13,376 bases of DNA from a virus (taxonomy: Duplodnaviria > Heunggongvirae > Uroviricota > Caudoviricetes), in IMG/VR virus record IMGVR_UViG_2923344815_000005; one strand, given 5' to 3'. The first letter of the stretch is position 1; each line of letters starts with the position of its first letter. The position numbers and the translations under genes are program-made. Below the pieces are notes generated by a model that was given only the letters and a program-made list of their open reading frames with translations, had not been told where the DNA came from and made no database searches. Of the stretch, positions 1-13,376 are shown in pieces.

Positions 1-675
1 CTTGCACCTATCATAAAATTAAAACAAGTTGATAGCAGTCAAATAACAACCAATTAAATACACAATCATAATCAGGATGATGTGCATTTATATTTTTATA
101 CACAAAATTATAGTTTGCAAATTTTAATAAATTCCATTTAAGATTAAATTATTATATGTATATTGTTTTTTATTCTAACGTATTTCAAAGTTACATTTTT
201 CAACGCTTACTATACTTTTTATTAACATAAACTCACTACAACGCACCTGAAACCTCTTGCTATATATATGTCAACCGTTTGAATTTAAAATAAAAAGAGT
301 ATCATTTTTACTTGCATTTCTTATCAAGTCACATTCAACAACAGTAAAAAAACATTATTAGAACCATTCAATTAACAAAAAACCAACATCCAGCTTGCTT
401 AATTTTTCTTTATTAAACGACATTGAAAATCAATTGATAAAATACATCTAAACAACCTTTTGGGGCGCAAAAGCATAACATCAAACAAACAAATAACACA
501 CCGAAAAAACTCACAATTAATAACCTATGATATACATACTGTTTATTATGGTTGAATAAGCCACTCGATATCTGGTGCTACGGAAGTGTCCACACGGTTT
601 AGCAGCACCCGATACTTTTTCCAGGCTTCCAGCAACGAGTTTTCTTCCTCCGTTGCATATACAGCTCACCTTTTT

Positions 676-969
676 TCACCCACGATTAACCAACAGCCAG
701 ACCAGCAGACACGCCACCACCGGCACAGCAAAATCCATCAGGCTTGCCACATCCCATGCACGTGTATCAAAACCGCCCCACCACGGCATATTCATTCGCT
801 TGCCATGCCCGAACATTTCGATCCAGCGATATTCTGCCTGGGTGTGTTCACGCGCAATGAAGAACGTACAACCGGCTATCGCCCCGTAAGCCCAGTTCCC
901 GGTAAAAAGACCAATCAGTAGCTGCGCAGCCACAGCACAAAGCGCATGAAGGAAAGGTGTTATATCCAT
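676..969 (-). CDS. Small hypothetical membrane protein (97 aa) with two hydrophobic helices; last gene of the four-gene module
   Basis: ORF track. Strong RBS AAGGAGGAG a few nt before the ATG, 10 nt after the stop of the upstream gene. Two hydrophobic stretches (about residues 5-35 and 75-95) flank a Trp/Gly-rich loop. No family recognised. Confidence 0.5.
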   Translation of the reverse strand: MDITPFLHALCAVAAQLLIGLFTGNWAYGAIAGCTFFIAREHTQAEYRWIEMFGHGKRMNMPWWGGFDTRAWDVASLMDFAVPVVACLLVWLLVNRG

Positions 970-979
970 TACTCCTCCT

Positions 980-1684
980 TTATCCGATATCGCTTCGGGA
1001 AACGGATAACAACTTTAATTCTGACTCAAGTTCATCAACTCTTTCAGTCAGCTTCTGGATATGGTGAATCAGTGGAACAACCAGACGTTCGTACATTACA
1101 CCTTCGGCAACAAGGCCATTGCTGGAAATAGCTTCAGGAGCATCATCTTCGTTAGCTGGTCGCCAGTGTACAAACTGAGGGGCAATTTCTCCTACTTCCT
1201 CGGCAATCAATCCGTAGAATCCCCAGTCACGCCTGTCATTTTCGTATTGCGACCTGTACCACACAGGGCGCATCCTGAAAATGAGATCGGCGTGCTCTGA
1301 ATCTATCGTCTCTACTGAATGTTTATAGCGAATAGACGATGTTGACCGCAGTACAGACGAAATTGCAGGGTCAGGATTAAGATAAAGGTTTGCCGCCGCT
1401 GTAGTCGTGCCCAATCCCCACATATAAAACGCTTCACGGCCAGTCAACGGGTAAAAATCTCCACCATAACGACCGCTTTCCAGATCGTTCACTTCCAGTT
1501 TGTTTTTCAGCTTATTATCAACTTCAGTTTTTGTGTATCTGGTGCTGATATCCTGCTTTGCACTGGTCATATCAGTCTGAAGCGTTGATACTTTTCCGTT
1601 AATTGAGGAAATATCTTCCTTAGTTTTACTGACATCTCCCTTTAGCGTGGTGATATCTCCTGGAATTACTGTCGATGTAGCCAT
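980..1684 (-). CDS. Tail-fibre-like protein (234 aa): N-terminal repeat-rich probable coiled coil, C-terminal intramolecular-chaperone (peptidase S74-like) domain
   Basis: ORF track. RBS GAGGGAG 4 nt before the ATG. N-terminal region has repeating T/S-K-x-D-I-S blocks; C-terminal part (SSIRYKHSVETID ... GLIAEEVGEIAPQFV ... ELESELKLL) resembles the auto-cleaving chaperone domain of phage tail fibres and tailspikes as I recall it; unconfirmed. Confidence 0.55.
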   Translation of the reverse strand: MATSTVIPGDITTLKGDVSKTKEDISSINGKVSTLQTDMTSAKQDISTRYTKTEVDNKLKNKLEVNDLESGRYGGDFYPLTGREAFYMWGLGTTTAAANLYLNPDPAISSVLRSTSSIRYKHSVETIDSEHADLIFRMRPVWYRSQYENDRRDWGFYGLIAEEVGEIAPQFVHWRPANEDDAPEAISSNGLVAEGVMYERLVVPLIHHIQKLTERVDELESELKLLSVSRSDIG

Positions 1685-1693
1685 TTGTCTCCC

Positions 1694-1975
1694 TCACATC
1701 CAGCCACGAAGTTGATGCTCAACAACAACCGCGTATTTATCGAATATTGACGATTTTTTTACATCATTAATGATGCGCACGTTTACAAAATATCCGTCTT
1801 CCTTAACACATACCGGTTCGCCATCTTCAGTCAGTTCTCCGGTTTCTTTGTACACGTTACCTATCACGTCAATAAGAATATCATCCTGCATCGACTCGTC
1901 ATCATAATAGCCAATACTCTCCATAAAGGCCGAAAAGTCGGCCCTGTCTGCAAATTTGAGTGTTAAATCTTTCAT
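1694..1975 (-). CDS. Small acidic hypothetical protein (93 aa)
   Basis: ORF track. Start ATG overlaps the TGA stop of the upstream ORF (ATGA overlap), with GGGGAGAG upstream, suggesting translational coupling. No family recognised. Confidence 0.45.
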   Translation of the reverse strand: MKDLTLKFADRADFSAFMESIGYYDDESMQDDILIDVIGNVYKETGELTEDGEPVCVKEDGYFVNVRIINDVKKSSIFDKYAVVVEHQLRGWM

Positions 1976-2916
1976 TTAATACTCTCCCCCATTTGCGCAT
2001 CAGTTAATTCTTTATGCCAGATACGCAGATTACGGATATGACCAAAAAGATGATACTCCCCATTAGTGCCCTGCCCTCCAATTCGCAATACTGCCCGTGG
2101 AACAATTGAAGTCCATGTTGTTTTTGCCGCAACAGATAATTCACCATTACATACGGCCTGAACATCTCCATCAGCGCCACAACGGAAGCCTGAAATGATT
2201 TTCCTCTGGGTTGTTGCCACATATTTATTACACCCTCCCATAGAAATAAAAGGAGAACCGGCATCAGAGAAATTATTACCACGGAATCCATGCGTGAACA
2301 GACCATTTTCCTGATAATCTTTAACATTAAAGATTAATGGTGATTTGCTGGGAGGGATATCCCAGTTTTTATTAACTTCAACAAGAGCACTGAATGGTAA
2401 TCGGTGAATATTGTTTCTTACAGGTATTGTCACCATGTCGCTGGAGCGAGTGCCAGGAGCCCCTTCAGTAATGATAAATGACGTCCTGTACGACCCAATC
2501 TCCGCCTGAGGCATCGCAATATCTAACGTAGAGCCATTGGGGATAATACTGATTCCAGGCATCGCCAGGATTTCAAATCTTGAGCTGATTATCATTTCCG
2601 CATCTGCAAAAAGAGTGGCGGTAAACAACCACCATTCACCGACTCTTTCTGCCGTCACCGTCACATTATTTCCATGAACAACATTTCCCGTAACAGGATC
2701 CAGAACTGCATCTGAATGAAAAACAAACGCACCATTATCAGACATTTTTCCGAACCTTGCACGACACCGGGAATTATCACTTTTCGTCAGACACGATATC
2801 GTCGTATAAGAACCTGCCGGGCAGGTGTAAGCATCATTCGTGTTTACAGCAATTGCCTGATATCCTTGTGCTGTCGGATTTTCATTAATAACAGTTATAG
2901 TCGCTGCCCATCGCAT
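1972..2916 (-). CDS. C-terminal fragment of a tail-fibre / receptor-binding-like protein with a LamG-like (concanavalin-like jellyroll) domain; fused out of frame to the terminase A fragment, native start missing
   Basis: ORF track. C-terminal motif GEYHLFGHIRNLRIWHKELTDAQM resembles the end of LamG-type domains. The ATG at 2916 lies inside terminase-derived sequence, so only sequence below about 2896 is fibre-derived. An internal Met at about 2745 has only a weak RBS. Confidence 0.5.
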   Translation of the reverse strand: MRWAATITVINENPTAQGYQAIAVNTNDAYTCPAGSYTTISCLTKSDNSRCRARFGKMSDNGAFVFHSDAVLDPVTGNVVHGNNVTVTAERVGEWWLFTATLFADAEMIISSRFEILAMPGISIIPNGSTLDIAMPQAEIGSYRTSFIITEGAPGTRSSDMVTIPVRNNIHRLPFSALVEVNKNWDIPPSKSPLIFNVKDYQENGLFTHGFRGNNFSDAGSPFISMGGCNKYVATTQRKIISGFRCGADGDVQAVCNGELSVAAKTTWTSIVPRAVLRIGGQGTNGEYHLFGHIRNLRIWHKELTDAQMGESIK

Positions 2917-3100
2917 TCATGATGGCCCGCTGAAAGGGCAGTGTTTCCCAGCGCCCTTCCTGGTATGCGGATTCTTTCGGGAGATAGTAATTAGCATCCG
3001 CCCATTCAACGGCGGTCTGTGGCTCCGGCCTGAACAGTGAGCGAAGCCCGGCGCGGACAAAATGCCGCAGCCTGTTAACCTGACTGTTCGATATATTCAC
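2885..3100 (-). pseudogene. Terminase large subunit (gpA) N-terminal fragment, truncated after about 68 codons
   Basis: Translation MNISNSQVNRLRHFVRAGLRSLFRPEPQTAVEWADANYYLPKESAYQEGRWETLPFQRAIMNAMGSDY matches the recalled lambda gpA N-terminus, then diverges (NCY, stop). Start overlaps the nu1 stop as in lambda. Corresponds by position to the K-12 DLP12 terminase fragment. Confidence 0.85.
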
Positions 3101-3620
3101 TCAGCAACCCCGGTATCAGTTCATCCAGCGCGGCTGCTTTGTTCATGGCTTTGATGATATCCCGTTTCAGGAAATCAACATGTCGGTTTTCCAGTTCCGG
3201 AAAACGCCGCTGCACCGACAGGGGGATCCCGTCGAGAATACTGGCAATTTCACCTGCGATCCGCGACAGCACGAAAGTACAGAATGCGGTTTCCACCACT
3301 TCAGCGGAGTCTCTGGCATTTTTCAGCTCCTGTGCGTCGGCCTGCGCACGCGTAAGTCGATGGCGTTCGTACTCAATAGTCCCTGGCTGGAGATCTGTCT
3401 CGCTGGCCTGCCGCAGTTCTTCAACTTCCCGGCGCAGCTTTTCGTTCTCAATTTCAGCATCCCTTTCGGCATACCATCTTATAACGGCGGCAGAGTCATA
3501 AAGCACCTCATTACCCTTGCCACCGCCTCGCAGAACGGGCATTCCCTGTTCCTGCCAGTTCTGAATGGTACGGATACTCGCACCGAAAATGTCAGCCAGC
3601 TGCTTTTTGTTGACTTCCAT
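3075..3620 (-). CDS. nohD: Terminase small subunit Nu1 (181 aa), apparently intact
   Basis: ORF track; translation is near-identical over its full length to lambda Nu1 as recalled (MEVNKKQLADIFGASIRTIQNWQEQGMPVLRGG...). Lies immediately downstream of cos. Confidence 0.9.
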   Translation of the reverse strand: MEVNKKQLADIFGASIRTIQNWQEQGMPVLRGGGKGNEVLYDSAAVIRWYAERDAEIENEKLRREVEELRQASETDLQPGTIEYERHRLTRAQADAQELKNARDSAEVVETAFCTFVLSRIAGEIASILDGIPLSVQRRFPELENRHVDFLKRDIIKAMNKAAALDELIPGLLSEYIEQSG

Positions 3621-3860
3621 TGTTCATTCCACGGCCAAAAACAGAGAAAGGAAACGACAGAGGCCCAAAAGCTCGTTTTCAGCACCTGTCGTTTCCTTTC
3701 TTTTCAGGGGGTATTTTAAATAAAAACATTAAGTTACGACGAAGAAGAACGGAAATGCCTTAAACCGGAAAATTTTCATAAATAGCGAAAACCCGCGAGG
3801 TCGCCGCCCCGTAACCTGTCGGATCGCCGGAAAGGACCCGCAAAATGATAATAATTATCA
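3621..3860 (-). other. Lambda-like cos site: cosB with three R-type repeats, cosN cohesive-end sequence, flanking cosQ-side sequence
   Basis: Reverse complement of 3798-3809 is GGGCGGCGACCT, the lambda 12-nt cohesive end, followed by CGCGGGTTTTCGC. R-like motifs at about 3650-3660 (GGAAACGACAG), 3685-3696 (inverted copy) and 3747-3755. Sequence above 3810 matches the recalled lambda right end (CGTAACCTGTCGGATC). Confidence 0.8.
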
Positions 3861-4008
3861 TCTACATGTCACAACGTGCATCTACGCCATCAAACCACGT
3901 CAAATAATCAATTATGACGCAGGTATCGTATTAATTGATCTGCATCAACTTAACGTAAAAACAACTTCAGACAATACAAATCAGCGACACTGAATACGGG
4001 GCAACCTC

Positions 4009-4203
4009 ATGTCAACGAAGAACAGAACCCGCAGAACAACAACCCGCAACATCCGCTTTCCTAACCAAATGATTGAACAAATTAACATCGCTCTTGAGCA
4101 AAAAGGGTCTGGGAATTTCTCAGCCTGGGTCATTGAAGCCTGCCGTCGGAGACTAACGTCAGAAAAGAGAGCATATACATCAATCCAGAGTGATGATGAA
4201 TAA
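4009..4203 (+). CDS. Small ribbon-helix-helix (Arc/MetJ-like) DNA-binding protein, 64 aa
   Basis: ORF track. Basic N-terminus followed by NIRFPNQMIEQINIALEQKGSGNFSAWVIEACRRRL, which resembles the strand-helix-helix pattern of Arc/Mnt-type repressors. Sits between cos and bor. Confidence 0.5.
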   Translation: MSTKNRTRRTTTRNIRFPNQMIEQINIALEQKGSGNFSAWVIEACRRRLTSEKRAYTSIQSDDE

Positions 4204-4562
4204 ACATCCCGGTTTCTTCCACCATCGCACCGGAAAAGCGACTATGAGGGTAACCCTGCGTCTGTCAGCACAGTAAAACCCGGTGTGCATCGTTTTTGAT
4301 TATTCCCGCACACTCACGCAGAAGGAATTCCCCGTCGGGCTACGGTCATGGTTAATGCGGGAATACGGCGACGATACAGCGCAGCTAAAAGGGTAATGGA
4401 CAGAAAGAGCGGTTTATTTCATTCCACAGGATTCTGAGTGCCCCCCTCCTCCAATAGGCTGAGCATCCACCTATATAGTTTTAATTTTCATCAATCCATT
4501 TAACTATCGTTTAATTGTTGTCACATAGGATTCTGCCGTTTTTAACAATGCAGGATAATAAG

Positions 4563-4856
4563 ATGAAAAAAATGTTGTTTTCTGCCGCTCTGGCAATGCT
4601 TATTACAGGATGTGCTCAACAGACGTTTACTGTTGGAAACAAACCGACAGCAGTAACACCAAAGGAAACCATCACCCATCACTTCTTCGTTTCGGGAATT
4701 GGACAGGAGAAAACTGTTGATGCAGCCAAAATTTGTGGCGGCGCAGAAAATGTTGTTAAAACAGAAACCCAGCAAACATTCGTAAATGGATTGCTCGGTT
4801 TTATTACTTTAGGCATTTATACTCCGCTGGAAGCGCGTGTGTATTGCTCACAATAA
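4563..4856 (+). CDS. borD: Bor/Iss-family outer-membrane lipoprotein (97 aa)
   Basis: MKKMLFSAALAMLITGCAQQTFTV... has a signal peptide with lipobox LITGC and matches lambda Bor as recalled. Start taken at the internal Met of track ORF 4515..4856. Convergent with Rz, as in lambda. Confidence 0.9.
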   Translation: MKKMLFSAALAMLITGCAQQTFTVGNKPTAVTPKETITHHFFVSGIGQEKTVDAAKICGGAENVVKTETQQTFVNGLLGFITLGIYTPLEARVYCSQ

Positions 4857-4862
4857 TTGCAT

Positions 4863-4888
4863 GAGTTGCCCATCGATATGGGCAGCTC
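4863..4888. terminator. Palindromic hairpin between convergent bor and Rz (possible bidirectional terminator)
   Basis: GAGTTGCCCAT-CGAT-ATGGGCAGCTC gives an 11-bp stem (one G-U pair) with a 4-nt loop. It overlaps the Rz stop codon. No clean U-tract on either strand. Confidence 0.35.
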
Positions 4889-5349
4889 TATCTGCACTGC
4901 TCATTAATATACTTCTGGGTTCCTTCCAGTTGTTTTTGCATAGTGATCAGCCTCTCTCTGAGGGTGAAATAATCCCGTTCAGCGGTGTCTGCCAGTCGGG
5001 GGGAGGCTGCATTATCCACGCCGGAGGCGGTGGTGGCTTCACGCACTGACTGACAGACTGCTTTGATGTGCAACCGACGACGACCAGCGGCAACATCATC
5101 ACGCAGAGCATCATTTTCAGCTTTCGCATTAGCTAACTCCTTCGTGTATTTTTCATCCAGTGCAGCAACATCACGCTGGCGCATCTGCATGTCAGTAATT
5201 GCCGCGTTCGCCAGCTTCAGTTCTCTGGCATTTTTGTCGCGCTGGGCTTTGTAGGTAATGGCGTTATCACGGTAATGATTAACAGCCCATGACAGGCAGA
5301 CGATGATGCAGATAACCAGAGCGGAGATAATCGCGGTTACTCTGTTCAT
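4888..5349 (-). CDS. rzpD: Rz inner-membrane spanin (i-spanin)
   Basis: Matches lambda Rz as recalled ([33 protein letters not shown]...). Start placed at the Met whose ATG overlaps the endolysin stop (ATGA); the track ORF extends 4 codons further upstream. Confidence 0.9.
4947..5129 (-). CDS. rzoD: Rz1 outer-membrane lipoprotein spanin (o-spanin), embedded in the +1 frame of Rz
   Basis: 60-aa [63 protein letters not shown]: lipobox VVGC and proline-rich stretch, matching lambda Rz1 as recalled. Lies entirely inside Rz in another frame. Confidence 0.85.
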
Positions 5350-5843
5350 TGCTGACCCCACAAACAGATTTCACGCTCAATCTCACGACGAGTCATGAGA
5401 CCTTTCCATTGCTTACCGCCAGCATATGTCCAGCGACGTAGCTGATCACATGCGCCTTTGATATCGCCCTGGTTTATTTTGCGAAGAAGCGTCGATGTTC
5501 TGAAATTGCCAGCGCCCACGTTGTAAACGAACGAGTAAAGAGCGCCGCGCGTTGTTTCCGGTATATCAACTTTTATGTACGGGTTAATTTGTCTGGCGAC
5601 CGTGGCAAGGTCTTTATTCAGGAGGGCTTTGCATTCTGCTTTGGTATACGTTTTACCGAGCATGATGTCTTTTCCTGTATGCCCGTGACATACAGTCCAT
5701 ACACCAACAATATCTTTGTATGGTATGTAGCTGACACCTTCCAGACCATCGTTACCACTTGGGCCAGTGATTAACACTGATGCTATAGCAATTGCTCCGC
5801 CACCAATAGCAGCAGCAACGGCTTTTCGTAATGATGGAGGCAT
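5346..5843 (-). CDS. rrrD: SAR (signal-arrest-release) endolysin, phage-21 R-type lysozyme
   Basis: 165 aa; Gly/Ala-rich weakly hydrophobic N-terminus ([18 protein letters not shown]) followed by a lysozyme-like domain; matches phage 21 R as recalled. Start overlaps the holin stop by 1 nt. Confidence 0.9.
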
Positions 5844-6058
5844 TATTCACCTCTCGCAGCCTTGCGCTTATCTTCTTTAATCTTGAAATAAAGGTTTGTC
5901 AGGTACGTCAGCAGGCCAAATACCAGGCTACCCAGCACACCTATTGCTGCCCACTGTGAGGGCGTGACTTTATCGAGCAGCTGTAAAAACCAGTAACCGG
6001 CACTACCTGCTGAGGTGCCATAGGCGACACCCGTTGTTAACTTATCCATGGATTTCAT
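5843..6058 (-). CDS. essD: Pinholin S21 with dual-start motif (antiholin from Met at 6058, holin from Met at 6049)
   Basis: [31 protein letters not shown]...[15 protein letters not shown] matches phage 21 S as recalled; M-K-S-M dual start; two transmembrane segments. RBS GAGGTGGGG upstream. The track ORF extends further upstream to 6103. Confidence 0.9.
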
Positions 6059-6103
6059 AACCCCACCTCGCAGACAAAGCGGGTGTAAATTGAGGGAATA
6101 CAA

Positions 6104-6646
6104 CGTATCGCAAAAAAGCAGAAACGTAACAGACTCGGAGTCAGTGAATAACTCAGGTATTGAGTTATCAGCTAATATCGAGACTCAAAAAATGGAAAAA
6201 CCAGCTCGACGGCGGGTTTAAGCTGTGTGACGAAGTAACCACTCTTAACAGCATAACCAATTTTTTACGTACGTAAACCACTGAATGATATTTATGAGAA
6301 TGCTACCGAGTGTTCAAAACACCACCACAAATATATAAGAAAACCTCAACAAATAACCAATAAATAATTTCCGGCGTTATTTTTAGTTGATTTAAATTAA
6401 ACCACCGAATTATAGAACCCCCATAAATAACAGCCATTAATATAAATTAGCTAATAGGTTTATTTTTGTTCAAATAAGAGCTATAAATAGGTTTCGATAG
6501 AAAAAGTTCAGATAAAAATAGAGATCTACTTCACAAATTAAATGAGAAACTAAAACTTACATCTTGAAATAATCACATTGATTAGATGAATATTTATCGC
6601 GCAGTGACATCATTTTTTAATAATAGTTCAAAAAAAAGGGCTCACG
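6104..6646. promoter_or_regulatory. AT-rich divergent intergenic region between the lysis cassette and the porin gene; presumed to hold the porin promoter
   Basis: About 540 bp with no ORF of 60 aa or more, strongly AT-rich, lying between divergently transcribed genes. I could not place -35/-10 elements confidently. Confidence 0.3.
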
Positions 6647-7729
6647 ATGAAAAAATTAACAGTGGCAATTTCTGCTGTAGCTGCATCAGTACTGATGACG
6701 ATGTCTGCTCAGGCAGCTGAAATTTATAATAAAGACAGTAACAAGCTGGATCTGTACGGGAAAGTTAATGCCAAGCACTACTTTTCCTCTAACGATGCAG
6801 ATGATGGTGATACTACTTATGCCCGTCTTGGCTTCAAAGGTGAAACCCAAATCAACGATCAACTGACTGGTTTCGGTCAGTGGGAATATGAATTCAAAGG
6901 CAACCGCGCTGAATCTCAAGGTTCCTCCAAAGACAAAACCCGTCTTGCATTTGCAGGCCTGAAATTCGGTGACTACGGCTCAATCGATTACGGCCGTAAC
7001 TACGGTGTAGCATACGACATCGGTGCGTGGACTGACGTTCTGCCAGAATTCGGTGGCGATACCTGGACCCAAACAGATGTGTTCATGACTGGTCGCACCA
7101 CTGGTGTTGCAACCTATCGTAACAACGACTTCTTTGGTCTGGTCGATGGCCTGAACTTTGCTGCTCAGTATCAGGGTAAAAATGACCGCACTGACGTAAC
7201 TGAAGCCAATGGTGATGGTTTCGGTTTCTCCACTACTTATGAGTATGAAGGATTCGGCGTGGGTGCAACCTATGCTAAATCAGATCGCACTGACGGTCAG
7301 GTCGCCTATGGTAAGAGCAAATTCAATGCCTCCGGCAAAAATGCGGAAGTATGGGCTGCAGGCCTGAAATATGATGCGAACAATATCTATCTGGCTACCA
7401 CATATTCTGAAACTCAGAATATGACCGTTTTTGGTAATAACCATATTGCAAACAAAGCACAAAACTTTGAAGCAGTAGCACAATATCAGTTTGACTTCGG
7501 TCTGCGACCATCTGTTGCTTACCTTCAGTCAAAAGGTAAAGACCTTGGTGTTCATGGTGACCGAGACTTAGTCAAGTATGTCGATGTCGGTGCTACTTAC
7601 TACTTTAATAAAAACATGTCCACTTTTGTTGATTACAAAATCAACTTAATTGACGATAGTAAGTTTACCAAAACAGCTGGTATTGATACCGACGACATCG
7701 TCGCTGTAGGTCTGGTGTATCAGTTCTAA
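6647..7729 (+). CDS. nmpC: Outer-membrane general porin of the OmpC/OmpF family (nmpC-like), apparently intact
   Basis: 360 aa; signal peptide ending [10 protein letters not shown]; porin hallmarks ([18 protein letters not shown]-terminal VYQF). Position between Q and the lysis genes on the opposite strand matches DLP12 nmpC. Confidence 0.85.
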
Positions 7730-7745
7730 TCTGATTACGAAAAAG

Positions 7746-7827
7746 ATATGTTGCGGGAGGCTTTGCCTCCCCAACATATAAGTGGCTCCCTCAAGCCACT
7801 TCCTTTAGAAGCACAACCTTGCTTCTA
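7746..7827 (+). other. Three consecutive stem-loops in the porin 3' untranslated region
   Basis: Hairpin 1 at about 7746-7779 (15-bp stem with one bulge, 3-nt loop); hairpin 2 at about 7780-7801 (AAGTGGCT / AGCCACTT); hairpin 3 at about 7806-7827 (TAGAAGC / GCTTCTA). Confidence 0.5.
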
Positions 7828-7867
7828 ACTATATAAACCTTCTGTTATATATTACCCTTTATTTTTG

Positions 7868-7891
7868 GGGGCGTCTCAACGCCCCATTTTT
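7868..7891 (+). terminator. Rho-independent terminator for the porin transcript
   Basis: GGGGCGT-CTCA-ACGCCCC (7-bp GC-rich stem) followed by ATTTTT on the plus strand. Lies between convergent nmpC and the Q-like gene. Confidence 0.6.
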
Positions 7892-7918
7892 AATAATTTT
7901 TAGTAAACAATTGGCATA

Positions 7919-8302
7919 TTAATTAGAGTTATTAACAACGATATCCATCTCTAACCGGATATCTAATGCCATTAACATCCCTTCAATTATGCCCTCAGCC
8001 TTCTGTAACCTTTTCCCGATATAACCATCAGAGCAGCAATGCTTACCTGCCAGTGACATGAATGTCATACCGACTACATAATAATCTACTAATAAATCGT
8101 GCAAATCGCTGTTGTTCTTTTTCAGACGGGCCATGCACCCGCAAATGATCATCGCGTCATCGTCACAACATTGCGGGCGAGATTTTACTTTTGAAGTAAT
8201 TAATCCCTTAAAACCGGCGGCAATGGACGACCAGGTCACATCTTCATGATTATTAGCCGCCCACGCTCCCCAACGCTCAAGAACCATCTGAATATCACGC
8301 AT
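7919..8302 (-). CDS. quuD: Late-gene antiterminator Q-like protein
   Basis: Cys-rich protein ([16 protein letters not shown] ... [11 protein letters not shown]) located between rusA/ylcG and the late/lysis region, matching the DLP12 gene order. Start chosen at Met 6 of track ORF 7919..8317; either start is possible. Confidence 0.7.
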
Positions 8303-8387
8303 CAACTTACTCCACAAAAATCAGACCAGAACGCCAATTACAAGCAAAAATCAATAAAACAGTATTAGTTGATTGTTATCTCTGACT

Positions 8388-8528
8388 TCATACTCCTGCT
8401 CCTGTCAGGGTTTTGGCGTAATTCCTCAGTATTCGGTAATCGGTCAAAACAGAACTGGGGAAACGATATAAGCGCAGGCGCATCCAGCGGTGGCGAAGAA
8501 GTTCTGCCATATTAAACTCAAACATCAT
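8388..8528 (-). CDS. ylcG: Small protein (46 aa) coupled to rusA, at the ylcG position
   Basis: Not in the ORF track (under 60 aa). Reverse-strand reading gives [46 protein letters not shown]; its ATG overlaps the rusA stop (ATGA). Confidence 0.5.
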
Positions 8529-8887
8529 TCATTCCCCATTTCGGTGATGGTCAGTTCCAGCCTCCCACCTTTGGTAACAGGCATCTTCACAACGCGGTAA
8601 TCAACGACCTGAGCATCATCCAGCCAGAAACCTGCTTTAGTGAGTGCGTCAAAAGCGGCTTTTTGCAGATTATCCAGGTCACGGCGACGGCGATCCGGCA
8701 TGTGGCACTCAATGCGGATTTTCACAGGGATAGCCAGGCCGATATCCAGCATTGCGTTTTTAATGATTCTGGCGACGTTATCGCGGTATGCCTGCCCCTC
8801 TGCGCTGACGTGCGTGCGCCCGCGATTATGGCGGTAATAGCGATTATTGCTCGGAGGCCAGGGTAATGTGATGCTGTAGGTATTCAC
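8525..8887 (-). CDS. rusA: RusA Holliday-junction resolvase (120 aa)
   Basis: Translation matches RusA as recalled ([37 protein letters not shown]...). The start codon read from the sequence is GTG, with no well-spaced RBS. Confidence 0.9.
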
Positions 8888-8956
8888 GCCTTAATAATCC
8901 CCTCTTTCAGCCACATAACCTGTGTTTTCGCCATACCTTCCAACTGAGGTGTAAAA

Positions 8957-9235
8957 ATGTTCAGAATCATTTTGCCTAACACCTGGTACGTCGACCACCA
9001 CGGCACTCCCTGCAAAATCCTGCGTTCTACCCACAACAAAGTTCACTACATCCGAAAAGGCAGAACATGTATCGCCAGCATGTTCCGCTTTAATCATGAC
9101 TTTGAACCTGTGAATAAAGCTGATGCAGATCGGATAGCAGAAGAGATCGAAACGGCAGAACACATTAAGAAGTTACGTGACATGCGTTCAAAAAGCAGAG
9201 GTAACCATGGAATCATACAGCCTCACACTCGATGA
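8957..9235 (+). CDS. Hypothetical protein (92 aa) immediately upstream of xis/int
   Basis: ORF track. Strong RBS TGAGGTG about 7 nt before the ATG; same direction as xis and int and overlapping the xis start. Overlaps antisense ORF 8891..9163, so only one of the two can be real. Confidence 0.4.
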   Translation: MFRIILPNTWYVDHHGTPCKILRSTHNKVHYIRKGRTCIASMFRFNHDFEPVNKADADRIAEEIETAEHIKKLRDMRSKSRGNHGIIQPHTR

Positions 9236-9578
9236 GGCCTGTCAGTTTCTTAAGATATCCAGACCAACCGCCACCAACTGGATACGAACAGGCCGCCTAC
9301 AGGCAACACGTAAAGATCCAACCAAGCCAAAATCTCCTTACCTCACAACACGGCAAGCCTGCATTGCGGCGCTTCAGTCTCCGCTGCATACTGTCCAGGT
9401 GAGCGCGGGTGATGGCATAACAGAGGAAAGAAAATGTCACTCTTCCGCAGAAATGAAATATGGTATGCCTCGTATTCGCTCCCGGGCGGGAAACGAATTA
9501 AGGAATCTCTTGGCACAAAGGACAAGCGGCAAGCTCAGGAGTTGCACGACAAGCGAAAAGCAGAACTCTGGCGAGTAG
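9207..9578 (+). CDS. xisD: Excisionase-like helix-turn-helix protein (xis candidate), unusually long and overlapping the int start
   Basis: From the Met at 9207 (RBS GAGGT upstream): [35 protein letters not shown], an HTH typical of excisionase/AlpA-type proteins. The frame stays open about 145 nt into int; the true C-terminus is uncertain and it may be a degraded gene. Confidence 0.5.
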
Positions 9579-10597
9579 AAAAGCTAGGGGATTTACCTGA
9601 TGTCACTTTTGAAGAGGCCTGCCTAAGATGGCTTGAGGAAAAAGCTGATAAAAAATCTCTCGATTCAGATAAAAGCCGGATTGAGTTCTGGCTTGAACAT
9701 TTTGAGGGTATAAGGCTTAAAGATATCTCGGAGGCAAAGATTTACTCTGCTGTAAGCAGAATGCATAACAGAAAGACGAAAGAAATATGGAAACAGAAAG
9801 TTCAGGCCGCCATCAGGAAAGGTAAAGAACCGCCTGTTTATGAACCAAAGCCAGTATCAACTCAGACAAAGGCAAAGCATCTTGCCATGATAAAGGCCAT
9901 TCTCCGTGCTGCAGAACGCGACTGGAAGTGGCTGGAAAAAGCGCCTGTCATCAAGATACCAGCGGTCAGAAACAAGCGAGTCAGATGGCTGGAAAAGGAG
10001 GAAGCAAAACGCCTTATTGATGAGTGCCCCGAACCACTGAAATCTGTCGTCAAGTTTGCGCTGGCAACTGGTCTGAGAAAGTCGAACATCATAAATCTGG
10101 AATGGCAACAAATCGACATGCAGCGACGAGTTGCCTGGGTGAATCCAGAAGAGAGCAAATCAAACCGCGCCATTGGTGTGGCGCTGAACGATACCGCCTG
10201 TAAAGTGTTGCGTGATCAAATAGGCAAGCATCACAAATGGGTGTTTGTACATACCAAGGCGGCTAAGCGAGCAGATGGAACATCAACGCCTGCGGTCAGG
10301 AAGATGCGCATCGACAGCAAGACATCATGGCTATCAGCTTGTCGTCGTGCAGGAATTGAAGATTTCCGTTTCCATGACCTCAGACACACCTGGGCAAGCT
10401 GGCTGATTCAGTCAGGCGTCCCATTATCAGTGCTTCAGGAAATGGGCGGATGGGAGTCCATAGAAATGGTTCGTAGGTATGCTCACCTTGCGCCTAATCA
10501 TTTGACAGAGCATGCGAGGAAAATAGACGACATTTTTGGTGATAATGTCCCAAATATGTCCCACTCTGGAATTATGGAGGATATAAAGAAGGCGTAA
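9434..10597 (+). CDS. intD: Tyrosine integrase (387 aa) adjacent to tRNA-Arg
   Basis: N-terminus [34 protein letters not shown] typical of P4/P21-type integrases; C-terminal catalytic motifs (HDLRHTWAS ... RRYAHL with the active-site Tyr). Stop is about 15 bp from the tRNA 3' end. Confidence 0.9.
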
Positions 10598-10612
10598 CTG
10601 ATTGAATTGTAA

Positions 10613-10689
10613 TGGCGCGCCCTGCAGGATTCGAACCTGCGGCCCACGACTTAGAAGGTCGTTGCTCTATCCAACTGAGCTAAGGGCGC
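10613..10689 (-). tRNA. argU: tRNA-Arg (anticodon UCU), argU-like; integration target of the prophage
   Basis: Reverse complement reads GCGCCCTTAGCTCAGTTGGATAGAGCAACGACCTTCTAAGTCGTGGGCCGCAGGTTCGAATCCTGCAGGGCGCGCCA: 77 nt, cloverleaf-compatible, anticodon loop CUUCUAA, T-loop GGTTCGAATCC, terminal CCA. Confidence 0.9.
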
Positions 10690-10931
10690 GTTGATACCGC
10701 AATGCGGTGTAATCGCGTGAATTATACGGTCAACCCTTGCTGAGTCAATGGCTTTTGATCTGGTTGCTGAACAAGTGAACGACCGCGTCTGATTTTCTGA
10801 TTTATTTCGCTATAGTGGCAAACAAACGCACACCGCTGCGCGTCTGAATCAAGAAAACCCGTATTTTCATGTATCAAAGTACAATTTATCGCCCTAACGG
10901 AAAATTGTCCGCTCCTATGAGACTGGTAACT

Positions 10932-11329
10932 ATGAAACCAACGTCGGTGATCATTATGGATACTCATCCTATCATCAGAATGTCTATTGAAGTTCTGTTG
11001 CAAAAAAACAGTGAATTGCAGATTGTCCTGAAAACGGATGATTACCGCATAACCATCGATTATCTCCGAACCCGTCCTGTTGATTTAATCATTATGGATA
11101 TAGACTTACCCGGAACAGACGGTTTTACCTTCCTGAAAAGGATCAAACAAATCCAGAGCACAGTGAAAGTGTTATTTTTATCATCGAAATCAGAATGCTT
11201 TTATGCTGGCAGAGCGATACAAGCTGGTGCTAACGGTTTTGTCAGTAAATGCAATGATCAGAATGATATTTTTCATGCCGTTCAGATGATCCTCTCCGGA
11301 TACACGTTTTTTCCTAGCGAAACGCTTAA
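10932..11329 (+). pseudogene. fimZ: fimZ-like response regulator, receiver domain only, truncated by IS5
   Basis: MKPTSVIIMDTHPIIRMSIEVLLQKN...DLIIMDIDLPGTDGF matches the FimZ receiver domain as recalled. The ORF runs into IS5 at 11330; the track ORF tail (KEGANKRGN...) is IS5-encoded. No room for a LuxR-type HTH domain remains downstream. Confidence 0.8.
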
Positions 11330-12524
<1,195 letters not shown>

Positions 12525-12678
12525 TTAGATGAATACTTCCGCGCATAATATATTCAACACAAATATAGACCTGAAGCGGTAAATTACCAGGCTGAAAATT
12601 CTTTTTATATTGTCAGGTATTTCGGTGATGCTGCCAACTTACTGATTTAGTGTATGATGGTGTTTTTGAGGTGCTCCA

Positions 12679-12954
12679 GTGGCTTCTGTTTCTATCAGCT
12701 GTCCCTCCTGTTCAGCTACTGACGGGGTGGTGCGTAACGGCAAAAGCACTGCCGGACATCAGCGCTATCTCTGCTCTCACTGCCGTAAAACATGGCAACT
12801 GCAGTTCACTTACACCGCTTCTCAACCCGGTACGCACCAGAAAATCATTGATATGGCCATGAATGGCGTTGGATGCCGGGCAACCGCCCGCATTATGGGC
12901 GTTGGCCTCAACACGATTTTCCGCCATTTAAAAAACTCAGGCCGCAGTCGGTAA
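12679..12954 (+). CDS. insA: IS1 InsA (transposition inhibitor / N-terminal part of the transposase)
   Basis: GTG start; zinc-finger-like CPSC...CSHC and an HTH; matches IS1 InsA as recalled. Confidence 0.9.
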
Positions 12955-13376
12955 CCTCGCGCATACAGCCGGGCAGTGACGTCATCGTCTGCGCGGAAAT
13001 GGACGAACAGTGGGGATACGTCGGGGCTAAATCGCGCCAGCGCTGGCTGTTTTACGCGTATGACAGGCTCCGGAAGACGGTTGTTGCGCACGTATTCGGT
13101 GAACGCACTATGGCGACGCTGGGGCGTCTTATGAGCCTGCTGTCACCCTTTGACGTGGTGATATGGATGACGGATGGCTGGCCGCTGTATGAATCCCGCC
13201 TGAAGGGAAAGCTGCACGCAATCAGCAAGCGATATACGCAGCGAATTGAGCGGCATAACCTGAATCTGAGGCAGCACCTGGCACGGCTGGGACGGAAGTC
13301 GCTGTCGTTCTCAAAATCGGTGGAGCTGCATGACAAAGTCATCGGGCATTATCTGAACATAAAACACTATCAATAA
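12873..13376 (+). CDS. insB: IS1 insB reading frame (expressed as the InsAB' fusion by -1 frameshifting)
   Basis: 167-aa ORF ending at the last base of the window; matches IS1 InsB as recalled and overlaps insA in the -1 frame. Confidence 0.85.
12930..12936 (+). other. IS1 programmed -1 ribosomal frameshift site (A6C motif)
   Basis: AAAAAAC at about 12930-12936 (context TTTAAAAAACTC) in the insA/insB overlap; this is the established IS1 slippery motif. Confidence 0.7.

Follow-up and report, generated by a model that had tools for sequence, protein, structure and literature searches.

The Stf-Tfa module of phage lambda lies after J and lom, and it combines a side tail fiber protein (Stf) bearing the N-terminal tail-attachment domain PF08400 with a small gene next to the fiber gene. 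Among lambdoid relatives, the phages PhiR49_1, IdasGreatGrand and 2G7b possess a cassette that we write as stf / 93 / 234 (/ 97), after the lengths in amino acids of its small products, and the ancestral order, as in PhiR49_1, is J - lom - stf - 93 aa - 234 aa - 97 aa. The T1-like phages Warwickvirus SLUR29 and BASEL Bas05 PeterMerian likewise have stf / 93 / 234 but are without the 97-aa gene. The defective prophage DLP12 of Escherichia coli K-12 (nohD - aaaD' - tfaD - ybcY' - tfaX - appY - ompT) is integrated at tRNA-Arg(TCT) by intD; its genes lead from rusA/quuD to nohD, and behind them come a stub of terminase A, debris of the tail-fiber region and appY.

We compared these systems with a stretch of 13,376 nucleotides (hereafter the window) that contains four adjacent open reading frames (ORFs) on its minus strand, for products of 314, 93, 234 and 97 aa (Table 1). 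The window matches the lambdoid phages in the order, spacing and sequences of the cassette (84-96% amino acid identity) and the T1-like phages at about 50-60% amino acid identity. Unlike in those phages, its stf is truncated at codon 474, with no virion available for attachment. Like lambda, it has a cassette derived from a position after J and lom, a parent Stf with PF08400, and a small gene next to the fiber gene; unlike lambda, the C-terminal half of its Stf is LamG/GTA-spike-like, no similarity of the 93-aa protein to Tfa families was detected, and lambda-type tfa is present only as a 3' remnant downstream. Prophage site and gene order from rusA/quuD to nohD are those of K-12 DLP12, whereas K-12 retains none of the four ORFs and joins about 103 terminase codons to tfaD; the window joins 68 codons to stf codon 474, keeps stf' / 93 / 234 / 97, and has lost ybcY. 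With high confidence, we interpret the four ORFs as the surviving end of the DLP12 side-tail-fiber cassette, a product of ordinary prophage decay and not a new accessory system.

Table 1. Positions of the prophage features in the window
Feature	Coordinates	Strand	Evidence or remark
AT-rich region upstream of appY	1-545		Beyond the tfaX-like remnant
tfaX-like 3' remnant of a lambda-type tail-fiber-assembly gene	546..656	-	PGAP "tail fiber assembly protein, missing N-terminus"
97-aa small integral membrane protein (predicted)	676..969	-	PHROG_1443; end of fiber operon
234-aa short fiber protein	980..1684	-	N-terminal coiled-coil/shaft repeat; C-terminal S74 chaperone domain
93-aa acidic protein	1694..1975	-	PHROG_1361; ATGA overlap with stf
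314-aa ORF, chimeric truncated Stf fragment	1972..2916	-	stf-derived part 1972-2898 only
Deletion junction, terminase A codon 68 to stf codon 474	2898		Three-way nucleotide comparison
Terminase large-subunit stub	2885..3100	-	68 terminase codons to 2898, then 3 out-of-frame stf codons and a stop
nohD, terminase small subunit (Nu1), intact	3075..3620	-	Pfam Phage_Nu1, E = 2.4e-101; RefSeq nohD

The prophage and its deletion junction

The window was 100% identical to ETEC O6:H16 chromosomes and 98% identical to K-12 DLP12 on both flanks. Its gene order is intD - rusA - quuD - porin - essD/rrrD/rzpD - iss - ylcI - nohD - scar - four ORFs - tfa' - appY, and the integration site is argU, tRNA-Arg(TCT), at 10613-10689, adjoining intD. 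The argU/intD site and the succession rusA - quuD - porin - essD/rrrD/rzpD - bor/iss - nohD are those of a DLP12-type defective lambdoid prophage, and the genes for head and tail morphogenesis are gone. The region is very probably the distal end of the side (lateral) tail-fiber operon of a DLP12-family lambdoid prophage at tRNA-Arg(TCT). When aligned with the complete 45-kb phage PhiR49_1, the window was collinear with a single gap leading from terminase position 18324 into stf; PhiR49_1 positions 18324 to about 38.5 kb, corresponding to terminase codon 69 through mid stf, are absent. The gene nohD is the final complete late gene ahead of the scar. At the other end, the region of the tfa remnant was 98.6% identical to the K-12 sequence from tfaX to upstream of appY, and an identical type of remnant also follows the 97-aa gene of PhiR49_1, a live phage.

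The junction was mapped by comparing the nucleotides of the window, the PhiR49_1 terminase gene and the stf gene of strain EC0026B, and independent BLAST end points agreed with the result. It has a 1-nt overlap and no microhomology. The terminase large subunit profile of PHROG covers residues 1-68 of the stub, which through codon 68 was 98.4% identical to gene A of PhiR49_1 and is annotated as a pseudogene by PGAP. These data are consistent with an illegitimate deletion, some 20 kb long, of everything between terminase A codon 68 and stf codon 474. Because the BLAST alignment of K-12 with the window stopped exactly at 2898, a left break point shared with K-12 was considered, but comparison of K-12 with PhiR49_1 ruled this out: the K-12 terminase homology reaches about codon 103, so the stop at 2898 reflects the junction of the window alone. 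The DLP12 locus of K-12, with terminase A codon ∼103 joined to tfaD, and that of EC0026B, with nohD joined to J', arose by deletions independent of the one in the window.

The exact junction was present in 30 of 5,426 complete genomes, every one 100% identical there, and the 25 listed copies that bear it matched the window at about 100% over 4.2 kb. In AR_0085 the 234-aa gene is frameshifted by a 1-nt deletion. The other 29 have all of genes 2-4 intact, a count that carries no weight for or against maintenance because the copies are nearly identical.

Layout and products of the fiber cassette

Within the four-ORF block we found a 4-nt ATGA overlap, gaps of 9 and 10 nt, and a Shine-Dalgarno sequence ahead of each of genes 2-4. 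The co-directional packing reported in an initial annotation of this DNA was thus confirmed, apart from its first member, which is an Stf fragment, and the strong ribosome-binding sites described for the three downstream genes are present. The further claim, that the block is a maintained operon rather than decayed remnants, was not supported by comparison. The spacing is identical in the phages, and therefore tight packing and strong ribosome-binding sites were inherited from a phage and are not evidence of maintenance by the host; moreover, the junction is limited to 30 near-identical genomes, one of them frameshifted. Between 676 and 3100 the minus strand had no promoter-like sites, and a promoter scan of positions 1-4300 returned fewer sites than shuffled controls. 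Searches of PADLOC-DB v2 with the four proteins gave no defense family at E ≤ 0.01.

Genes 2-4 align end to end with the post-stf genes of the plaque-forming phages PhiR49_1 and IdasGreatGrand, at 84-100% amino acid identity overall, and a less-decayed DLP12 prophage in EC0026B encodes the four products at 99-100% identity. The reading that had been called simplest, the distal receptor-binding cassette of a lost tail, is borne out by these alignments, and the alternative of a module retained for a host function is not supported: the four products correspond end to end with contiguous genes after J and lom in the same two phages, the outcome that had been named in advance as refuting a separate system. 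Comparison with the live phages yielded dN/dS values of 0.16-0.36, estimates that, at the level of sequence comparison, show selection acting in phage lineages. The other DLP12 remnant differed by zero synonymous and two non-synonymous changes. Strictly virulent T1-like phages carry an stf / 92-aa / 231-245-aa cassette, and the occurrence of stf / 92-aa / ∼235-aa genes in such phages identifies them as virion fiber or assembly genes. Literature searches by RefSeq protein accession and by description of the cassette returned no functional study of or experiment on the 93-, 234- or 97-aa proteins, and an Eligo preprint on lambda-Stf engineering does not deal with this cassette.

Residues 7-314 of the 314-aa ORF correspond with 100% identity to residues 474-781 of a 781-aa Stf that survives at full length in another E. 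coli. The ATG at 2916 and the first 6 codons are terminase DNA read in a different frame, with no Shine-Dalgarno sequence found upstream of this start. A Pfam search detected no PF08400 domain in the ORF; the parent has one at residues 1-131 (E = 5.8e-67), which makes the ORF a piece of an Stf family member rather than a functional member in itself. It is not an intact or maintained gene. The ancestral Stf would have been a fiber anchored to the tail through its PF08400 domain. Stf codons 474-781 encode a GTA-spike-like beta-sandwich plus a LamG-like jelly-roll, a C-terminal receptor-binding region homologous to phage fiber tips, and on the basis of their fold these two beta-sandwich, lectin-like domains most likely bind a surface glycan. 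The receptor-binding part is only 35-44% identical in amino acids to that of sequenced phages, i.e., it is a different allele. From the last ∼40 stf codons onward, PhiR49_1 and the window share 93% DNA identity, whereas the remaining Stf C-terminus shares 44% amino acid identity.

The 93-aa protein was 91% identical to its PhiR49_1 counterpart, 100% identical to that of EC0026B, and 84-91% identical to those of live phages overall; the listing from its homolog search comprised relatives of at least 85% identity. Among phage records, 179 have its gene directly behind a homologous Stf C-terminus, and virulent phages of the T1-, T5- and rV5-like types are among them. The Stf C-terminus itself occurs in 205 records, the host and genus distributions of the two mirror each other, and the adjacency of the 93-aa and fiber genes is repeated in the listed phage records across five phage groups. 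The protein had no match in Pfam or NCBIfam and no relative among PDB sequences; its only matches were PHROG_1361 and PHROG_18574, both labeled "unknown function". The earlier statement that the two small proteins belong to no recognizable family thus holds for Pfam and not for PHROG, in which they fall into families 1361 and 1443. By sequence the 93-aa protein lies outside the Tfa/chaperone family (lambda Tfa / P2 G / T4 gp38 type), and its gene is immediately downstream of, and by the ATGA overlap coupled to, the fiber gene. Position and invariable co-occurrence with such an Stf C-terminus indicate that it is most likely a fiber assembly or accessory factor, and it could form a new class of fiber-tip assembly factor common to five unrelated phage groups.

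In S74 domains, work on endosialidase and T5 has assigned a catalytic role to a Ser/Lys pair. The 234-aa protein scored 27.6 bits on Pfam Peptidase_S74 (PF13884), for which the cutoff is 22, over residues 116-172 and profile positions 1-57 of 58, and this domain and the LamG-like jelly-roll of the Stf fragment confirm the tail-fiber-type domains previously noted in two of the products. It aligned to the T5-type lateral tail fiber (LTF) 8hqz_d at positions 952-1068, a stretch that takes in both the SxxxxK motif and the shaft repeat; S116-S-I-R-Y-K121 stands opposite S-G-I-E-Y-K, and the Ser-Lys dyad that had been proposed as a check is accordingly present. PF13884, an aligned Ser-x4-Lys motif and one copy of the "DI(A/S)T.YTKTEVD" shaft repeat are features that the protein has in common with T5-type fibers and the K1F endosialidase; unlike them, it is very short, with about 115 aa predicted to remain once cleaved, and is without a recognizable receptor-binding or enzymatic domain. 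Identity was 95% to PhiR49_1 and 94-95% to live phages, and homologs in virulent Drexlerviridae (57-60% identity) are annotated "putative lateral tail fiber chaperone". The protein would be a short second fiber subunit whose S74 chaperone (S116/K121) would bring about its trimerization and then cut itself off; self-cleavage after trimerization is predicted by analogy with T5-type L-shaped fibers and K1F endosialidase. Fibers made of two or more separate polypeptides are a known layout, as in the branched LtfA/LtfB fibers of DT57C and DT571/2 (PMC4728585).

The 97-residue membrane protein

An AlphaFold2 (AF2) model of the 97-aa protein has three helices, at residues 4-23, 26-53 and 74-96 (pLDDT 91), in place of the two initially predicted. 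The family has an invariant motif, REHTQAEYRWI...PWWGGFD, and its alignment contains 27 invariant positions, including the polar residues H8, Q16, E41, H42 and D79 in or beside the membrane helices. Clustering at 50% identity divides the family into 427 groups, whose members are without exception stand-alone proteins of about 60-146 aa, and PHROG_1443 carries the annotation "unknown function". We found no Pfam or NCBIfam match and, using single-sequence and profile searches, no relatives in the PDB; 26 members scanned singly gave only scattered sub-threshold PhoR matches and one to a holin model. Identity to the proteins of live phages was 93-96%, and many lambdoid phages have just this gene, at about 95%, in common with the window.

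The family occurs only in temperate phages and in prophages, with hosts among Enterobacteriaceae, Aeromonas, Comamonas and others, and is missing in virulent phages carrying stf / 93 / 234. Since the latter carry the rest of the cassette without it, the 97-aa protein is unnecessary for fiber assembly, and its gene would be a temperate-phage-only add-on to the cassette. The gene stands right after J or a fiber gene in Comamonas, Aeromonas and enterobacterial prophages, and roughly one in three complete E. coli genomes has it.

Cor (phi80/N15/T1) and Llp (T5) are receptor-blocking exclusion proteins encoded at the distal end of tail modules. The 97-aa protein resembles them as a small envelope protein whose gene lies beside receptor-binding genes. 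A Cor/Llp-type lipoprotein was nonetheless rejected: the lipobox is absent, the sole N-terminal Cys (C11) is not conserved, the model is of a three-helix membrane protein, and no similarity to Cor or Llp was found in sequence or fold. Furthermore, the family is conserved beside very different fibers and so cannot be receptor-specific as Cor and Llp are. A holin was likewise rejected. The match to Phage_holin_8 was sub-threshold (E = 0.04) and confined to one of the 26 members, the gene follows tail-fiber genes, and the lysis cassette essD/rrrD/rzpD is elsewhere in the prophage, away from the 97-aa gene.

An activity in the lysogen is still possible for the 97-aa protein, perhaps as a small membrane enzyme, or in blocking either the entry of phage DNA or a conserved envelope step. 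The copy stranded in the DLP12 remnant might work given read-through of the late operon. A joint reading, in which the 97-aa proteins are a family of lysogen-acting envelope factors and the 93-aa proteins a new class of fiber-tip assembly factor, appears to us rather improbable.

Decay, recombination and retention

As the remnant of a decayed prophage, the cassette can build nothing in its present host, which has no tail to receive it and only an Stf fragment without its start, ribosome-binding site, anchor domain and shaft. Genes 2-4 would look intact from the recency of the deletion, not from host maintenance, and their transcription would be at most passive, at the tail of a Q-dependent late transcript through nohD.

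Compatible with decay, as a consequence and not a selected function, is a role as a recombination reservoir, in which infecting lambdoid phages rescue the remnant via nohD/terminase and tfa homology and thereby swap host-range cassettes. For lambda and phi80, recombination has been measured both with DLP12, at nohD/terminase, and with Rac/Qin, at stf-tfa (PMC3945230). The abrupt change of identity near the end of stf in PhiR49_1 and the many lambdoid phages that share the 97-aa gene alone are mosaic patterns. However, the Stf fragment lacks the 5' 60% of the gene, and a double crossover would require homology inside stf; we consider such rescue possible but somewhat doubtful.

Retention of genes 2-4, chiefly the 97-aa gene, for exclusion, receptor masking or envelope modification would suppose expression through read-through of the DLP12 late operon. 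The temperate-only distribution of the 97-aa family, its invariant polar residues in or beside membrane helices, its constant place at the distal tail-module end (a position known for cor and llp), and the persisting ribosome-binding sites of genes 2-4 are what would be expected of such a module. We nevertheless judge it very unlikely, as the block has no PADLOC match and no promoter of its own, its junction is restricted to the near-identical genomes with one frameshifted member, other E. coli lineages (K-12) have deleted the whole cassette, the 93- and 234-aa genes are clearly virion-linked, and the 97-aa protein, without a lipobox or conserved C11, is not Cor/Llp-like. That the ORFs are chance or annotation artifacts has a negligible probability, for only the first has an artifactual start, with its ATG in terminase DNA and no ribosome-binding site, whereas genes 2-4 have hundreds of homologs, the low dN/dS values given above, PHROG E values of 1e-46 to 1e-139 and, for the 97-aa protein, a confident structure model.

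As a discovery, the locus carries little weight. It does illustrate in textbook fashion how a prophage decays by steps, each of three E. coli lineages having its own deletion there, and it teaches that tight packing and good ribosome-binding sites are not evidence of host maintenance. PhiR49_1 is a living DLP12 relative with the full cassette, and it offers a functional phage in which to study the three uncharacterized small genes. The genes stf / 93 / 234 are common to temperate lambdoid and virulent T1-like phages, and stf / 93 also to T5- and rV5-like phages. The functions of these genes, once learned, would improve the annotation of host range and the engineering of phage fibers.

A truncated stf gene within the DLP12 prophage

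By sequence comparison, the window is the locus of the Escherichia coli DLP12 cryptic prophage. ETEC O6:H16 chromosomes (e.g., M9682-C1 and TW10598) were 100% identical to the 13.4-kb window, and K-12 DLP12 was 98% identical on both sides of the module at 676-2916. RefSeq lists the gene order at the matching locus as intD - rusA - ylcG - quuD - porin - essD - rrrD - rzpD - iss - ylcI - nohD - terminase pseudogene - four CDSs - tail-fibre-assembly remnant - appY - ompT. The porin gene (annotated ompC/nmpC-like) is intact in the window, and the lipoprotein-like ORF embedded in the rzpD frame is an Rz1-type rzoD arrangement, as K-12 annotation has it. Past the tRNA gene lies what we take to be a response-regulator ORF resembling fimZ, its 3' end presumably cut off at an IS5-type transposase gene that is followed by presumptive IS1-type insA/insB ORFs.

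Features of the window
Feature	Position	Strand	Remark
appY upstream region	1-500		GC 25-37%, no ORFs; 98.6% identity to K-12
tfa remnant	546-656	-	3' end of lambda-type tail-fibre-assembly gene
Gene 4	676-969	-	97 aa
Gene 3	980-1684	-	234 aa
Shaft-repeat motif	1510-1560		residues ~42-58 of gene 3 product
Gene 2	1694-1975	-	93 aa
ORF 1	1972-2916	-	314 aa, Stf-derived
Terminase/stf junction	2898		three-way nucleotide comparison
rzpD	4888-5361	-
Lipoprotein-like ORF	4947-5129
Porin gene	6647-7729	+
Second large deletion	8338-9197		~860 bp
att core	10611-10660
tRNA-Arg(TCT)	10613-10689
Region past tRNA gene	10869-13376		fimZ-like ORF (presumed)
IS5-type transposase gene	11476-12492	-	presumed
insA/insB	12679-13376		presumed IS1-type

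A BLAST search with the scar region, where a stub of the terminase large-subunit gene (A) meets the side tail fibre gene (stf), identified a full-length stf in strain EC0026B, encoding a 781-aa protein annotated as "prophage tail fiber N-terminal domain-containing protein". Residues 7-314 of ORF 1 were 100% identical to residues 474-781 of this protein. At the junction, terminase codon 68 meets stf codon 474; the overlap is 1 nt, and there is no microhomology. The ATG of ORF 1 lies inside terminase DNA, in another frame and without a Shine-Dalgarno sequence, and both the PF08400 tail-attachment domain (parent residues 1-131) and the shaft are missing. Thus one of the "four genes", taken in the initial annotation as a real operon member, is a chimeric, pseudogene-like ORF. 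The four minus-strand ORFs themselves are present as described, with an ATGA overlap coupling ORFs 1 and 2 and a purine-rich Shine-Dalgarno run upstream of each of genes 2-4; the reported 10-nt gaps hold for ORFs 3/4, whereas ORFs 2/3 are separated by 9 nt. The finding is real as sequence and ordinary as biology: the module is what a decaying DLP12 prophage has kept of its tail-fibre end; RefSeq already annotates it in this way, and sequenced phages have a counterpart of each gene.

The cassette in working phages

The 45-kb phage PhiR49_1 (PV340568.1), which was isolated on ECOR13, is collinear with the entire window; the two share int, rusA, Q, porin, S/R/Rz, Nu1, and A, and the phage also has ompT aboard. 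At its tail end the order is J - lom - stf (812 aa) - 93 aa - 234 aa - 97 aa, an arrangement repeated in IdasGreatGrand, and genes 2-4 share 84-96% amino acid identity with these two phages over their full length. Phage 21 differs in having stf, a 92-aa gene, and a 97-aa gene without the 234-aa gene. Working phages thus carry the cassette, the outcome that the initial annotation set as refuting a separate accessory system; nor did any module product match a PADLOC model, which speaks against the defence variant.

The PhiR49_1 integrase matches the window at 99% over the int region, and both ends of the record match it at the tRNA-Arg gene. Because this complete, plaque-forming phage shares the integrase and att site, DLP12 has a living counterpart. 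Between intD and rusA, the second deletion leaves ~860 bp in place of a ~10.4-kb early region (PhiR49_1 positions 1417-11848, from xis to the replication genes, plus cI/cro). The tfa remnant also occurs in PhiR49_1 (40792-40891), after the 97-aa gene. Its presence in a live phage suggests that the LamG-type stf/93/234/97 block displaced a lambda-type stf-tfa, seemingly by recombination earlier than the prophage decay.

Inheritance and decay of the module

Of 5,426 complete E. coli genomes, 30 carry the exact junction, with 100% identity across it in every case; AR_0085, one of the 30, has lost 1 nt from the 234-aa gene, which is thereby frameshifted. The porin gene of AR_0085 is interrupted by an ISVsa5 element. 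Other lineages have lost different stretches at this locus. In K-12 DLP12, tfaD is fused to terminase at codon ~103, and all four ORFs are absent; in EC0026B, nohD abuts a J fragment, and stf is still full length. The module differs from the remnant in EC0026B by two non-synonymous changes only. The 93/234/97 block is common, with at least 80% of it in 722 genomes. Among the copies listed, most come after a gene whose annotation includes a tail-fibre N-terminal domain, suggestive of full-length Stf; for a minority, the preceding gene is annotated only as a head-spike-fibre-domain protein.

Comparison with live phages gave dN/dS values of 0.16-0.36, which reflect selection in phage lineages. 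The good ribosome-binding sites and tight spacing, previously read as signs of a maintained operon, are inherited from the phage operon. No promoter-like site was found on the coding strand within the module, and its genes would at most be passively co-transcribed with nohD in the host. DLP12 and stf/tfa remnants can serve infecting lambdoid phages as recombination partners (PMC3945230), a likely secondary consequence; mosaic break points occur within the 3' end of stf as well as around the 97-aa gene.

Fibre-linked and membrane proteins

Homologues of the Stf C-terminal region occurred in 205 phage records and those of the acidic 93-aa protein (pI 4.3, as anticipated) in 179, with nearly the same host and genus breakdowns; the small gene is the next one 3' of the fibre gene in the lambdoid, T1-like, Dhillonvirus, Queuovirinae, T5-like, and rV5-like phage records listed. 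Besides lambdoids, the 234-aa protein was found in strictly virulent Drexlerviridae, which carry a self-contained fibre/92-aa/231-245-aa cassette within the replication module, its last gene named "putative lateral tail fiber chaperone" by the BASEL authors. Judged by this distribution, genes 1-3 are virion fibre or assembly genes. The predicted S74-type C-terminus of the 234-aa product was borne out by a Peptidase_S74 match above the Pfam threshold and by its alignment to a T5-type L-shaped fibre, which covers the chaperone region at the fibre's C-terminus, a Ser-Lys dyad motif (S116-x4-K121), and a fibre-shaft repeat. It contains one copy of the motif DI(A/S)T.YTKTEVD, which is repeated in tandem, as a 19-aa unit, in the shaft of T5-like LtfA fibres (PMC4728585). 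Among T5-like phages, there are documented cases of lateral fibres that are built from at least two polypeptides and whose C-terminal chaperone domains cleave themselves (PMC4728585; PMC8594841). By analogy, the 234-aa protein may trimerise via its chaperone domain and be cleaved at ~S116, leaving a short fibre piece that might be joined to Stf in the manner of branched T5-like fibres. The lectin-like domains of Stf would bind surface glycan, and the 93-aa protein may be an assembly or accessory factor for the Stf-type fibre tip.

The 97-aa protein has membrane helices, as proposed, but its model contains three (pLDDT 91) rather than two. The gene was found only in temperate phages and prophages. 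Wherever its neighbours could be seen, in Comamonas, Aeromonas, and other enterobacterial prophages, it either comes next 3' of J or a fibre gene or is set off from it by one or two small ORFs; one further copy sits close to the end of a contig, with toxin-antitoxin, Fic, and IS genes around it. Family members (427 clusters at 50% identity) are always stand-alone and ~60-146 aa long, and no relative was found in family, structure, or fold searches. The family has 27 invariant positions, including blocks R40-I50 and P62-D68, a core unusually rigid for a small membrane protein. Invariants in an alignment of 26 sequences from several genera were D2, H8, Q16, REHTQAEYRWI (11 residues), G56, R58, M61, P62, W64-D68 (WGGFD), W72, D79, and C87. 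The polar residues within its helices may mark a catalytic site or one that binds a ligand or metal, and the protein may act in the cell envelope, not the virion. This widespread membrane protein and, with lesser interest, the 93-aa fibre-linked protein are the only points worth experiment, and PhiR49_1 is a working phage in which the genes lost from DLP12 can be studied.
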